Below, one piece after another: positions 47,701 through 53,700 of a stretch of DNA of 64,000 nt. Position 1 is the stretch's first letter; each line of letters starts with the position of its first letter. This DNA is from Escherichia coli (GTDB lineage Bacteria > Pseudomonadota > Gammaproteobacteria > Enterobacterales > Enterobacteriaceae): the NCBI RefSeq assembly GCF_013315695.1, contig NZ_CP054353.1. The stretch is one strand, 5' to 3'. The position numbers were made by a program.

Positions 47701-50700
47701 GTCGTTGGTTTTGGGCCGTGACCTGTCAGCAGCTCAAACAATATGCTGATTTTGATCATGAGCATCATCGTTTCACTTTACGTGAATCAGTCAATGAACT
47801 GCCTGTCGGGCAGTACCAGCTGTTGCGCAAAGATGGCAGGCAAAATAGTGCGTTACAAATGCAGGATCACCACAGTTTTGCATATCGGATCAATCATCCA
47901 CTGGGTGAGTACGTCATTGACGGAGCCAAAGCCCAGGAGACGAAAACAGCTGAAGTCATCTTCGATTACAGTAACCACACAACGAAAGTTTCGGTGGCTG
48001 AGCAGCTGAAAGGGCAATCAGGATGGTTAACACTAAATTTGCTTACTGTTGATGCGTTTAACAGGCAGCAATTTTTAGTCTTTACCGCGAAAACTGACAA
48101 CGGACGTGTGGTAGATGGTGAAGCTTGTAAACGTCTGTTCAACTTGTCTGCAATAACCAACGAAAAGCTGGATAATTCGGCAAGTTTAGATGCATTACCT
48201 GATGACTTGATCTTACTCAAGAACAGGCAAATTGACGCCAGGCTTGCAGAAGTTTTGGAGCAGAACAATGTCCTTTTTGAAGCGGAAAGAGATAAGCTGG
48301 AAAAATGGGCTGAAGACATGATCTTTGCGGCGGAAGAAGCATTACGCGATACCAAAATGCAAATCAAGTCGTTGAAGCGAGAAGCCAGGCTGGCGCAATC
48401 GATCGAAGAACAAAAGCAAAACCAGGAAAAGCTTAAGCTCCTGGAACGGCAGCAGAAGCGCCAACGTATGGAAATTTTTGACATTGAAGATGAGATCGCC
48501 GACAAGCGGGATGAACTCATCAGTGCCCTTGAAGAGCGGATGAAGCAAAAGACGGATATCACCGAGCTGTTTACCATCCGCTGGAAAGTTATTTAATTGA
48601 TTTGAAAGAGAAAATAATGAGTAAGTACAACGAATTAGTTAAGAAGCTAAAAGAAATTTTTCAGATTGATCGACCAGAACTGGATTTCGGTATTTATCGT
48701 ATTTTAAATGCGCGTGCTGATGAAATTAACGACTATCTGGATAATAAGCTGAAGGCCAAAATCCAGTCTGCGCTGGCGGATGCAGGAAATGCCAATAAAT
48801 CAGAATTAGAACATCAGTTGCAACTGACAATAAAAGCGGCAACTGATGCGGGTGTAGACCCTGCTGATAGCCCAAAAGTACAGGAGCTTAAAAAGCAACT
48901 GGCGGCTATGGCATCCGGAGCAAATGAGCATGAAAATGCAGTATTTTCCCATCTGCTCACTTTCTTTTCGCGTTATTATGACAACGGCGATTTTATCAGC
49001 AAACGCCGTTATAAAGGTAATACCTACGCCATCCCCTATTCTGGCGAAGAAGTGATGTTGCACTGGGCAAATAAGGACCAGTACTACATTAAAAGCGGTG
49101 AAAACTTCGCTAATTATTCGTTCAAATTAGAAGACGGTCGTAAAGTTAGCTTTAAATTGCTCGCAGCGGACACAGCAAAAGATAACCGTAAAGATAATGA
49201 ATTAGATCGCTGCTTTGTACTTATTGAGCCACATGTTCGTACCAAAATTGATGAAGAAGGCGATGAGTACGAACAAGAATATAAGCCAGTAGAAGTGGTG
49301 AAAAACTCATCTGTGGTGGACGGTAAACTCGTTGAAACAGAAGAGTTAGTTATTCACTTCGAATATAAGGCAATGAAAAAGGGCACTAAGCAGGATGCTT
49401 TAGTACAGTCCGCCATTTCAACAATTCTGGCAGATAAAACAGTTCAACAGCATTGGGTTGATCTTGCTAAACGTGCGCCAACAGAAAAGAATCCGTCACG
49501 TACAGAGTTGGAGCGTCACCTTACAACTTATACCCAGCGTAATACAGCAGACTACTTTATCCATAAAGATCTCGGTGGTTTTTTAACGAACGAACTGGAT
49601 TTTTATATTAAAAATGAAGTAATGAATCTCGATAATGTGCAAAATGCAGAAGTGTTTGCCAATGTTGAGAAACAATTGCGCATGATTCAATGTTTGCGTG
49701 CTGTTGCGCTGGAACTCATTACATTTTTGGCACAAATTGAGAATTTCCAGAAAAAACTTTGGACTAAGAAGAAGTTTGTTGTTGGGCATGAGTATCTTGT
49801 GTCACTTTCAAATCTATCAGATTCGCTTTACGATAAAATTCGAACTAATAAAGGGCAACATGATGAATGGGTTGAGCTTTATGCTGTAAATAAAATTCCT
49901 GGATATTCATTTCCATTCACAAAAGATTTCTTGTATAAAAATAATGGTATGATATTGGATACAAAATATTTTGATCCGTCATTTAAGGAGGTTTTTTTAA
50001 CAGAGTTAACTAATGTTGACGATAATTTAGATGGTCTCTTAATTAATTCAGATAATTATCAGGCCATTAATTTTTTGGAGGGGCGGTATAAGGACTCAAT
50101 AGACTGTCTTTATATTGATCCTCCGTATAATACTGCGGCTTCAGAAATTTTATATAAAAATGAATATAAGCACAGCAGCTGGAATTCATTAATGTATGAA
50201 AGGATATCTAAAAGCTATAATTTACTGAAAATTTCTGCAATTAATTTTACCGCGATAGATCATGCGGAATTATATAATCTTGGTAAGATCAAGGATGAAA
50301 TCTATGGAGAACAAAACAGGATAGCAGTTGTTACTGTTCAGCATAATCCTAAAGGGCGTAACCAGGCAAAGTTCTTTTCTGAAAATACTGAGTATATGTT
50401 AGTATATGCTAAAGATTTTAATGCTGCTAACTTTAACTCTGTAGCTATCGATGAGGATGTGCTTTTAACATTCACAGAACAAGATAATATAGGCCGTTAT
50501 CGTTGGGAAAACTTTATTCGTGCAAGAACAAGTTGGTCCAGAGCAAATAGACCAAATAACTGGTATCCTTTATACGTCTCTTCCGACTTAAAATCAATTT
50601 CTGTTGATTATGTAGATGGGTATATCGAAGTATATCCTACAACTAAACAGGGGGATTTTTCGTGGAAAAATATTAAAGAATCATTTGTTGAATTAAATAA

Positions 50701-53700
50701 AGATAATTATTTTAAAGCTGTAAATGAAAATGGAGAAATAAAAATCTATCATAAATATAGGGAGCAGCAAGTCTTTAAAAATCTTTGGATTGATAAGAAA
50801 TATCAGTCTGAGTTTAATGGTACAAATTTACTGAAAAACATACTTGGACAATCACTATTTGATTATCCGAAATCATTATATGCAGTACAAGATGCAATCA
50901 AAATGTCGACACCACACAATGGTATTGTATTGGACTATTTTGCAGGTTCAGGGACAACTTCTCATGCAGTAATAAACCTTAATAATTCAGATAATCTCTG
51001 TATGAAATTTATCAATGTTGAAATGGGTACTCATTTCAATACAGTAGTTATTCCAAGATTGAAGAAAATTGGATATTCAAACTTATGGAAACAATGTAAA
51101 CCAATCGGTAAACCTCAAAAAATGACTATCAAGTATTTGAAACTTGAAAGTTATGAGGATGCTCTTAATAATATACAATTACGAAGTTATTCATTGCATC
51201 AGGATATTTTCGACATTTTGGTGGAAGATGTAAAATCAGAGTTTGCTCTTAAATATATTTTTGAAAATGAATTATTTTATTCACTATTAAATACTGATAA
51301 TTTCAAAAAACCATTTAACTACGAAATGGATATTGCGACGGATTCCGCCGGTGCCACTGAGCGTAAAAACATCGATTTAGTTGAAACTTTCAATTATCTC
51401 ATTGGCTTACATGTGAAATCCATCGAATCTGATATCGCACGTGGCTATGTGCGTATTGAAGGAACGCTGCCAACAGGCGAGCGTACCCTTATTCTGTGGC
51501 GCGATTGCGACAAGATCGGTTATGAAGAATTGAATAAATATGCCAACCGATTTGATTTGTATGCAAAAGAAAACACGTTCGACGTTATCTACATCAATGG
51601 CGATCATAACTTACCTACCGCCTTTACCGTTGATGAAGAAGACGGCGAGATTGTTCGTAGCCTGAAAATTCGCCAGATCGAACCTGAATTCTTGAACCTG
51701 ATGTTTGCGGAGGAGGTTTAAGAATGGCTAAAAAACCGACCACCGGTAAAGCAGTTAAAAAAGAGACTAACAGCAAGCTGAGCTTTCATAAACAACTGGT
51801 TTTAAACCGCTTTATGTTCCATTTTTTCAAAGATGGCACATTGCAAGGTTTGAAGAATCGGTTAGGCGAGGATCGCTTTGAAGGCATCCATGAAGATGGC
51901 CAAAGCTTGTTCTTCCATGAGCTGAGTAACTATTTATTCGAGGTCGATCTAATCGATCTCGATGAACTGCGTCGTTACGATCTCAATATCGTGCAGCACT
52001 GGCAGCAGATAACCGAGCACCGTAATCGTAAAGAAGACACTGTGCTGAACATGAAATATTTTCAGTACTTGTCGCTTCTGTTTACCGAGATCTACCTGGA
52101 CTGGTACTTCAATCGTAAACAGCAATTACTCGATGGGCTAAATAACGAGCTGGCAGCATACAATGCTGAAAATGATAAAACAGCAAAAGACCGGGCTAAT
52201 CAGTTCAAATCATATGTTCTGGATGATTTGAATAAATTGGCATACTGGAACGCTACTGGTTCTGGTAAGACACTGCTATTACATGTCAATATTTTGCAAT
52301 ATTTACATTATTTCCAGAACGGTAATAGCCATCATTATCCGGATAAAATCATCCTGCTTACGCCGGATGAACGCCTGTCGAAGCAACATTTAGATGAACT
52401 GGAAAACTCAGGGTTTACCCAATACCAGTTGTTCGATAAGAGTAAATCAGCGCCCTTCAAAGGCACGATTGAAGTCATTGATATCAATAAACTTGATGAT
52501 AAAATGGGCGACAAAACTGTTGCCGTTGAGGCATTTGAAGGCAACAATCTGGTCCTGATTGATGAAGGGCATAAAGGCACAGGAAGTGCTGCTGGTGCCT
52601 GGATGCGCCGTCGTGACAAGTTAACTCGTGACGGATTTGCGTTTGAATATTCAGCAACTTTTGGCCAGGCAGTAGCCGGTGGCAATAATGTGGAGGCAGT
52701 TGAAACAGAAATTCAGAAGAAAAAAGCAAAGCTGCTTTTTGAAACAACTGCCTTAGGCAAATTGAGCGAAGAAGAGTTAGCACAAATAGCATTAACCAGC
52801 GAAGAACAACGTGATGCGCGTATTCAGGCGACGCGAGAAGTCTATGGGAAATCGATTCTGTTCGATTACTCCTATAAATTCTTCTATGAGGATGGTTATG
52901 GCAAAGAATCACTGATTCTTAACCTTAATCCGCAAGATGATAAAAAAGATGAGCGTCGGTATGAGTATTTTACCGCGTGTTTGCTCAGCTTTTATCAGCA
53001 ACAATATTTATTCAATAAAAATAAAGAAAAATTAAATGAATTTAATATCGAAAAACCGCTGTGGGTTTTTGTCGGTAATTCTGTAAGTGGTGAAGATTCA
53101 GACATTCACGCAGTATTGCGTTTTTTAGCATGGTTTTTAAACCACGAAACGCAGGCAAAAGCGTGGATTAACGATCTCATTAAAAATAAAGCGCGAATCC
53201 TCGATACCAAAGAGCGTAACATTTTTGAAAATCGCTTTACTGCACTAATGAACGCTCCGGAAGATATCTACGCAGATATTCTTTCTCGCTTGTTTAACAC
53301 CACTCACTCTGGTCAGCGACTGCGAGTTCTGAATTTAATAGGCAGTAAAGGTGAACTGGCATTACAGGTTGGTGAGGCCGAACCGTTTGGCCTTATCAAT
53401 ATTGGTGATGCACCGTCTCTTTACAAAATGTGTGAAGAGGATACGACATTTGATTATCAGAGAGATGATTTTGCAAAGTCGCTCTTTCATACGTTAAATG
53501 ACAAAGACTCGCGACTACATATTTTGATCGGCTCGCGAAAATTTACTGAAGGCTGGAGCAGTTGGCGCGTCTCAACGATGGGATTGCTCAATATGGGCCG
53601 TGGAGAAGGTTCACAGATCATTCAGTTATTTGGCCGTGGCGTTCGCCTTAAAGGTCGCAATTATTCTTTGAAACGCAGTACACCCGGTGAGCGTCCGAAA

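Follow-up and report, generated by a model that had tools for sequence, protein, structure and literature searches.

A methyltransferase gene at positions 48617..51721 (+ strand) of the Escherichia coli window analysed here, a stretch of 64,000 nucleotides, raises the question of what the large parts of its product outside the catalytic core are for. The earlier note had described a core resembling the Mod subunit of Type III restriction-modification (R-M) systems, flanked by an N-terminal extension of some 500 residues and a C-terminal end that a standard Mod architecture does not explain, and had proposed that the extension might be a sensor, a partner-interaction domain or a second enzymatic domain. 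We find that the gene encodes the 1034-aa methyltransferase subunit of an EcoR22I-type system, a Type III-like restriction system that is unusually large and had been reported before. The system type is already known; what is new is that, across 49 loci, the N- and C-terminal modules of Mod diverge together with the restriction subunit Res, and the centre of the protein does not.

The proposed catalytic core was confirmed. Pfam N6_N4_Mtase spans residues 495-804 (E 2e-23), and motif IV (DPPY, aa 501, nt 50117-50128) precedes both the TRD, at approximately aa 600-750, and motif I (FAGSGTT, aa 775, nt 50939-50959), the order of a beta-class amino-methyltransferase. Because motif IV reads DPPY, the enzyme is probably of the N6-adenine type. 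Homology to characterised Type III Mods is evident in this region, which we delimit as a methyltransferase and TRD cassette of residues 471-892 (50027..51292, + strand). In an AlphaFold2 monomer model of the whole protein (pLDDT 84.9, pTM 0.81), about 380 residues superpose on the classical Type III Mods of EcoP15I (4zcf) and Mbo45V (7dsu) and on 6k0w, whereas about 650 fall outside; these classical proteins are 567-644 aa long and have neither the region 1-470 nor the module 893-1034. Phase variation of the kind seen in Haemophilus and Neisseria mod genes was considered and rejected, as this mod has no repeat tract.

The neighbouring genes identify the system. The operon runs in the order SNF2 helicase, mod, res, with 20 nt between the first two genes and 2 nt between the last two. 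Its first gene (45705..48596, + strand) encodes a 963-aa SNF2-family helicase that is DrmD/RapA-like by Pfam, PADLOC and PDB sequence matches: it contains SNF2-rel_dom (42-289) and Helicase_C (437-544), its top PADLOC match is DrmD (E 4e-199), it also matches the PADLOC BrxHI/BrxHII model (E 7e-74), and its best PDB sequence match is RapA. Downstream of mod lies the gene for a long Res subunit of 1126 aa (51724..55104, + strand), with an SF2 ATPase (Pfam ResIII at 167-293) and a C-terminal PD-(D/E)xK motif formed by D1024 (nt 54793-54795, context YPDF) and D1043-x-K (nt 54850-54858, context IDPKG). Searched against all PDB chains, EcoP15I Res included, Res returned only noise among sequence matches at E <= 1. 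Both subunits are matched over their full length by PADLOC R-M models and by R-M models only, Mod by the REBASE-derived MTase_III PDLC03646 (residues 1-1034) and Res by REase_III PDLC03654. A hairpin with a 15-bp stem, predicted at 55116..55148 and beginning 12 nt past the res stop codon, is the probable terminator of the operon. The two subunits depart from the canonical Type III pattern of a Mod of about 650 aa and a Res of about 970 aa related to EcoP15I Res, and the attached SNF2 helicase gene is a further difference from classical Type III systems.

These features agree with EcoR22I, a Type III R-M system described from E. coli ECOR22 by Silas et al. (bioRxiv 10.1101/2023.04.06.535777), the sole paper describing this system that our literature search found. 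EcoR22I restricts lambda-vir, and modification in a res* host, mutated at D1024 and D1043, protects the phage; the working mod and res genes, which are accompanied by a drmD-like SNF2 gene, also kill the cell when the phage protein Ocr is present (bioRxiv 10.1101/2023.04.06.535777). According to the authors, the system lacks any domain with a known role in cell death, and the end modules of Mod are not discussed in the preprint (bioRxiv 10.1101/2023.04.06.535777). The window shares with EcoR22I the species, the gene set, the lengths of mod (3105 nt) and res (3381 nt), the 2-nt gap between them and the positions of Res D1024 and D1043; this likeness is read from lengths, gene set and Res residues, and alleles of equal length but with other centres are present in E. 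coli. As E. coli centres vary, the recognition specificity of the window allele may differ from that of EcoR22I. The chromosomal setting is also different: EcoR22I lies in a P4-satellite hotspot, and the window copy closes a CP4-44-like island, adjoining nanS/nanM/nanC.

Two other defence systems share components with this locus. Class 1 DISARM (DrmD, DrmMI, DrmA, DrmB, DrmC) includes the protein nearest to the upstream helicase; we rejected this assignment because the operon has no DrmA, DrmB (DUF1998) or DrmC, and the helicase scores 667 against NCBIfam DISARM_DrmD_b, under the cut-off of 950. None of the PADLOC models outside R-M, DrmMI included, matched Mod. Type 3 BREX likewise combines a SNF2 protein, BrxHII, called RapA-like (PMC12839542), with a methylase of the PF01555 family, PglXI. 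It too was rejected: BrxA, BrxC/PglY, PglZ and BrxF were not found in the operon or its flanks, Mod and Res have no Brx or Pgl matches in PADLOC, and the effector in the window is instead a Res-type helicase-nuclease.

The earlier note had implied that this gene is an oddity, and here the family argues otherwise. Besides the full-length match to PDLC03646, 2336 cluster representatives (50% identity) match the Mod N-terminus; the extension marks a large family that is already catalogued, is present across many phyla and includes one genetically characterised member, EcoR22I. The system type occurs in at least 543 of approximately 100,000 species genomes, and in about 3% of complete E. coli genomes. 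A long Res of about 1100 aa is present in 35 of the 36 loci with full context.

That the N-terminal region (about 470 aa) and the C-terminal end lie outside a standard Mod was upheld, and queries of domain and fold libraries gave no assignment for either. The N-terminal constant module comprises residues 1-388 (48617..49780, + strand) and consists of a helical hairpin (34-120), a conserved segment modelled at low confidence (126-160), a beta sheet (155-254) and then a helical domain carrying the motifs DYFIHKDL..ELDFYIKNE and FQKKLW.KKKF. The C-terminal constant module, residues 893-1034 (51293..51718, + strand), has an alpha/beta structure. A profile built from a 25-sequence N-terminal alignment returned only noise (E >= 0.45) against all PDB sequences, and the region has no confident match to a common accessory domain of characterised Mods such as EcoP15I, the outcome that the note had named as contrary to its reading. 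In a Foldseek search of the N-terminal model against AFDB50, the top 50 matches all belonged to the same family, and a second informatively annotated architecture was not found among them. Searches with the isolated N and C regions against NCBIfam and PADLOC at E <= 1 gave nothing except two REBASE-type MTase_III models, and the C module had no match in Pfam or NCBIfam.

The N module nevertheless contains the most conserved blocks of Mod. About a dozen charged residues within its conserved motifs are invariant (D23, R119, D125, E144, E145, D154, K159, D312, H316, E326, E375 and K386), and such acidic, basic and histidine residues would fit a catalytic site or a pocket for a ligand; together with a D125...E145-x-K147-like pattern in the family consensus, they are what speaks for the module as an additional enzyme, such as a nuclease, an NTPase or another DNA-modifying enzyme, of a fold absent from the structure databases. 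Fold and profile searches lend this suggestion of the earlier note no support, and we consider it improbable. A PD-(D/E)xK nuclease at aa 125-147 in particular was rejected, since the family does not conserve the lysine, which is Met in this protein, and fold support is absent. Residues 126-160 are the best conserved segment and yet have the lowest confidence in the model of the Mod monomer, as is typical of surfaces that take on order only within a complex.

Comparison of alleles revealed that Mod is a mosaic. Among approximately 150 E. coli genomes, residues 1-388 and 893-1034 are retained at 97-99% identity and the centre is replaced; the C module in particular is about 97% identical across E. 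coli alleles that differ in the centre. Against E. coli allele P0014, identity falls from aa 389 on, and we place the start of the variable cassette at this break, in a helical linker of residues 389-470 (49781..50026, + strand) whose identity correlates with that of Res at r = 0.29. The GC content of the centre is 30.6%, compared with 39.8% in the N module, 42.5% in the C module and 40.2% in res. Across the 49 loci, identity in the N module correlated with that of Res at r = 0.92 and in the C module at 0.89, and the two modules correlated with each other at 0.87, whereas the centre as a whole gave 0.24 against Res and the methylase core 0.06 (Mantel permutation p = 0.001). These values must be interpreted cautiously, as co-divergence is evidence of shared inheritance, not of contact, and would also be expected if the centre alone recombined diversifyingly.

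In Type I R-M systems, alleles that are otherwise constant exchange specificity sequence, which is carried by a separate specificity subunit. The long Mod family likewise swaps specificity sequence, but what it exchanges also contains the catalytic core of the methylase. A further resemblance to Type I R-M loci is the insertion of cargo: many related loci have unrelated defence-type genes between mod and res.

The best explanation for these observations, to which we give a probability of roughly 55%, is that the N and C modules form the constant part, a chassis coupling Mod with Res, and that specificity resides in a centre that can be exchanged as a cassette. Mod would then perform methylation and target recognition in an EcoR22I-type long Type III-like R-M system, with a cassette homologous to EcoP15I Mod (aa ~471-892) set between family-specific modules. 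The cassette would fix sequence specificity and be exchanged between lineages by recombination, and the end modules would stay with the long Res subunit. The modules would most likely serve as a platform for assembly and communication, keeping Mod together and linking it to Res, and perhaps secondarily to the SNF2 helicase as well. Among the three roles proposed for the extension, partner interaction is the best supported, through the co-divergence with Res; the physical contact of the end modules with Res, like any part they may have in sensing Ocr, is what we infer beyond it.

The partner could alternatively be the helicase, with the N module acting as the docking site for the DrmD-like SNF2 protein encoded upstream. 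At 29 of the 36 loci with full context, about 80%, a SNF2 gene neighbours the long Mod, and one N-terminal sub-module, N2, shows a moderate correlation of identity with SNF2 (r = 0.61). At the same loci, however, Res gives stronger correlations (0.82-0.83) than SNF2 does (0.46-0.61), and the N module is complete in the seven loci without a SNF2 gene within 10 kb. Moreover, two E. coli genomes pair an identical Mod with a frameshifted SNF2 gene, and mod and res suffice for restriction and killing by EcoR22I. The module as docking site of the helicase therefore strikes us as a long shot.

One may also postulate that the N module senses phage proteins that counter restriction, the DNA mimic Ocr among them, and that binding switches Mod-Res from site-specific restriction to indiscriminate killing of the host. 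Under Ocr expression, EcoR22I mod and res kill the cell together and neither does so alone; no unexplained part of the Mod-Res complex is larger than the N module, and the two variable sub-regions of the module, aa 51-100 in the hairpin and an insertion at aa 201-250, could reflect evolution against proteins of the phage. Over most of the module, conservation across phyla nonetheless exceeds that of the catalytic core, which is unusual for an arms-race surface, and a DNA mimic would be expected to bind in the DNA groove of the methylase/TRD part. We regard a sensor in the N module as rather unlikely, though it is compatible with a chassis that couples Mod to Res and does not exclude it.

A more specific version of the chassis reading, which we put forward tentatively, is that the N and C modules constitute a platform of new fold that docks Res and relays the state of the cassette, DNA-bound or Ocr-bound, to the Res nuclease. 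If true, such a Res-docking platform would explain both the ordinary restriction and the Ocr-triggered suicide of EcoR22I-type systems, and the methylase core would be a plug-in cassette that can be swapped without disturbing the coupling. For roughly 60% of Mod no relative is known, and this part co-evolves with Res; the end modules are for this reason the place to seek the mechanism of coupling or sensing in a family of which one member both restricts phage and, on sensing an anti-restriction protein of the phage, kills its own cell. That the whole methylase/TRD core behaves as an exchangeable cassette, in turn, suggests a route to re-targeting such systems.

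The mod gene lies on a single unbroken reading frame of the plus strand (48602/48617-51721), annotated in RefSeq as a 1034-residue 'site-specific DNA-methyltransferase' with its ATG at 48617 (WP_001570878.1), and we take this ATG to be the true start because homologues begin with the same MSKYNEL. Both catalytic motifs named in the earlier note are present, DPPY at residue 501 and FAGSGTT at residue 775, although that note's residue numbers and its length of 1039 count from an upstream TTG. The sole Pfam domain of Mod is N6_N4_Mtase (residues 495-804), and the PDB chains matched with significant E-values in a sequence search are Type III Mods: EcoP15I (query 510-804), 6k0w and Mbo45V (query 469-872), which bears out the Type III-like core proposed earlier; two DpnA chains were set aside as noise (E ~0.13). 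PADLOC MTase_III PDLC03646 (1057 model positions) covers residues 1-1034. Judged by core homology and gene organisation, the protein is the Mod of a Type III-like restriction-modification (R-M) system.

The sequence ahead of this core had been described as unexplained by known domains, and this held in all searches: residues 1-470 had no match in Pfam or NCBIfam, a profile of 25 diverse N-termini found nothing among PDB sequences, and the best 50 Foldseek hits of the N-terminal model in AFDB50 were of the same methylase family only. The N-terminal module (residues 1-388) has many invariant charged residues and may harbor a second enzymatic activity, but neither fold nor profile searches lend support to this possibility. 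In the model, a long helical hairpin of variable sequence and length (34-120) is followed by a conserved segment (126-160; window 48992-49096), a beta sheet with a variable insertion (155-254) and a helical domain (259-470) with near-invariant DYFIHKDL..ELDFYIKNE and FQKKLW.KKKF. Residues 126-160 are the best conserved block of Mod (majority-residue fraction 0.81) and also the lowest-confidence part of both AF2 models (pLDDT 43-50), a coincidence which suggests that this segment may become ordered only in a complex or upon ligand binding. Another of PADLOC's models for Type III methylases, PDLC03638 (816 positions), aligns with Mod at residues 237-469 (window 49325-50023; E 4.5e-21) and ~806-941 (51032-51437; E 1.8e-07) with no match to residues 1-236, so that a shorter Mod family has part of these modules as well.

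Mod is encoded by the middle of three closely spaced genes, in a 9.4-kb operon that, over the stretch searched, is identical to the chromosome of E. coli isolate AF3. An SNF2 helicase gene (45705-48596) ends 20 nt 5' of mod, and res (51724-55104; RefSeq 'DEAD/DEAH box helicase family protein', 1126 residues) starts 2 nt past it. In Res, a ResIII ATPase domain is followed by a C-terminal PD...D-x-K motif, where D1024 and D1043 lie in a PD-(D/E)xK context, and PADLOC REase_III PDLC03654 spans the protein at full length. The system differs from canonical Type III R-M in its larger subunits, its attached SNF2 gene and a Res without detectable sequence similarity to any PDB chain, among which EcoP15I Res is presumably included via entry 4zcf. 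The helicase is RapA-like by PDB sequence search and nearest to DISARM DrmD, yet under the NCBI cut-off; membership in DISARM or BREX was ruled out because the other core genes of these systems are missing. A hairpin with a perfect 15-bp stem (55116-55148, 12 nt past the res stop; detected on the minus strand in a terminator scan) is probably a bidirectional terminator closing the operon.

A CP4-44-like island (Ag43, yeeR/S/T/U, cbtA, antirestriction gene) ends with the operon; it borders nanS/nanM/nanC and fim and is itself part of a larger island with fec and virK/capU. The annotated antirestriction protein gene (41858-42343) is in the CP4-44-type module with DUF932, JAB/RadC-like and yeeU/cbtA toxin-antitoxin genes. 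Just 3' of the operon, RefSeq marks fragments of two pseudogenes (55765-56404), for a phosphorothioated-DNA-binding restriction endonuclease and for an HNH endonuclease, which look like what is left of a further defence gene at the edge of the island. They are followed by a truncated nanS (sialate O-acetylesterase, about 56826-57392).

The N-terminal 466 residues matched 2336 cluster representatives (50% identity) at E <= 1e-3; among the 150 matches listed, the match nearly always started within the first ~30 residues, and about half were ~1000-1150 residues long, while the shorter matches are possibly fragments. Scanning a single genome for each species gave at least 543 loci, in Proteobacteria, Chlorobi, Planctomycetes, Actinobacteria, Acidobacteria, Verrucomicrobia, Firmicutes, Bacteroidetes and Spirochaetes. 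Among 36 fetched loci with enough flank, a long Res lay downstream of Mod in 35 and an SNF2 gene, usually upstream, in 29; the N-terminus was complete in the 7 loci lacking SNF2. The order Mod-Res-SNF2 instead of SNF2-Mod-Res occurs in Pasteurellaceae, Neisseria and Moraxella, and was seen in related loci L040, L042, L043, L044, L053 and L062 (genera Cardiobacterium, Neisseria, Haemophilus, Necropsobacter, Rodentibacter and Moraxella). A metagenomic homologue of 41% identity keeps the SNF2-Mod-Res order. In the metagenomic relative L002, an OLD-family (AAA_15/TOPRIM) ATPase and a UvrD-like helicase lie directly upstream of SNF2-Mod-Res (988-4691), a Gabija-like pair that fits a defence-island context. 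In two E. coli genomes, a Mod identical to that of the window lies beside a frameshifted SNF2, split into two frames near codon 413-420 (L086, CP164702.1, and L087, CP163700.1; both 90-2977); res of L087 has a further break near codon 34-36, and these breaks may reflect either true pseudogenes or errors of assembly.

About 25 related loci have one to three unrelated genes between mod and res, for example at L006 13120-14214, L009 13156-14175, L012 6794-7861, L014 10393-12236, L017 13304-15069, L027 13081-14864, L036 13129-14900, L048 10312-11418, L056 6357-8137 and L082 13084-16314. Judged from their N-terminal sequences alone, these look RhuM-like, YhcG/DUF1016-like or Fic-like, or pair an AAA ATPase with a ~214-residue DUF4276-like protein. 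The mod-res junction seems to be a hotspot for inserted cargo, a feature for which Type I loci are known.

The closest described system is EcoR22I, a Type III R-M system of E. coli ECOR22 in which a drmD-like SNF2 helicase accompanies mod and res; the supplement lists these two genes as adjacent, 3105 and 3381 nt long (Silas et al., bioRxiv preprint, 10.1101/2023.04.06.535777). The window genes have exactly these lengths, a likeness based on gene lengths and Res D1024/D1043. EcoR22I mod and res suffice to restrict lambda-vir, and phage that has first grown on cells with a nuclease-dead Res (D1024A, D1043A) evades restriction (10.1101/2023.04.06.535777). A dedicated SNF2-docking site in the N-terminal module is therefore unlikely, since the module persists in loci without SNF2 and EcoR22I functions without it. 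Expression of the T7 anti-restriction protein Ocr, a DNA mimic, causes cell death with EcoR22I mod and res together; transposon suppressors fell in mod and res only, and the authors report no domain known for cell death (10.1101/2023.04.06.535777). The N-terminal module may have a sensing role in this response, a role compatible with a constant chassis that holds an exchangeable methylase. With a system of the same type, from the same species and of identical gene lengths reported and genetically tested, and the family covered by PADLOC/REBASE-type profiles, we regard the system type as already known. In the searchable literature we found no description of the end modules or their isolation from known families, nor of how they co-diverge with Res or of a methylase core that behaves as a cassette.

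The operon is found in 150 of 5426 complete E. coli genomes (190 with any match). Only 16 E. coli genomes matched the window mod allele over its full length; in about 150, only ~52% of mod was matched, at 97% identity. In a protein comparison with one such ~52%-matching allele, residues 1-388 and 893-1034 were almost identical and residues 389-892 diverged or unalignable. We then compared pairwise identities across 49 loci from many phyla (Mantel permutation p = 0.001). Identity in the N-terminal module followed that of Res (r = 0.92), as did identity in the C-terminal module (893-1034; r = 0.89), and the two modules followed each other (r = 0.87), whereas correlation with Res was low for the centre (389-892; r = 0.24), the methylase core (471-600; r = 0.06) and the target-recognition region (TRD; r = 0.04); SNF2 correlations were weaker (0.46-0.61). 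Saturation was rejected as the cause of the low central values, as residues 751-892 equal the N-terminal module in mean identity, yet give r = 0.27. The GC content of the centre (30.6%, versus 39.8% for the N-terminal module, 42.5% for the C-terminal module, 40.2% for res and 44.5% for SNF2) agrees with a mosaic.

The best-supported reading of these comparisons is that Mod is built as a mosaic, with a constant chassis around a methylase cassette that can be swapped. Of the three roles suggested earlier for the extension, sensor, partner interaction or second enzyme, partner interaction, with Res, is best supported: the end modules most likely contact the long Res, as judged from a co-divergence that linkage alone could also give. 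The N- and C-terminal modules would then form the constant part of Mod, inherited together with Res, while the Type III-like methylase and TRD would serve as a specificity cassette traded by recombination.
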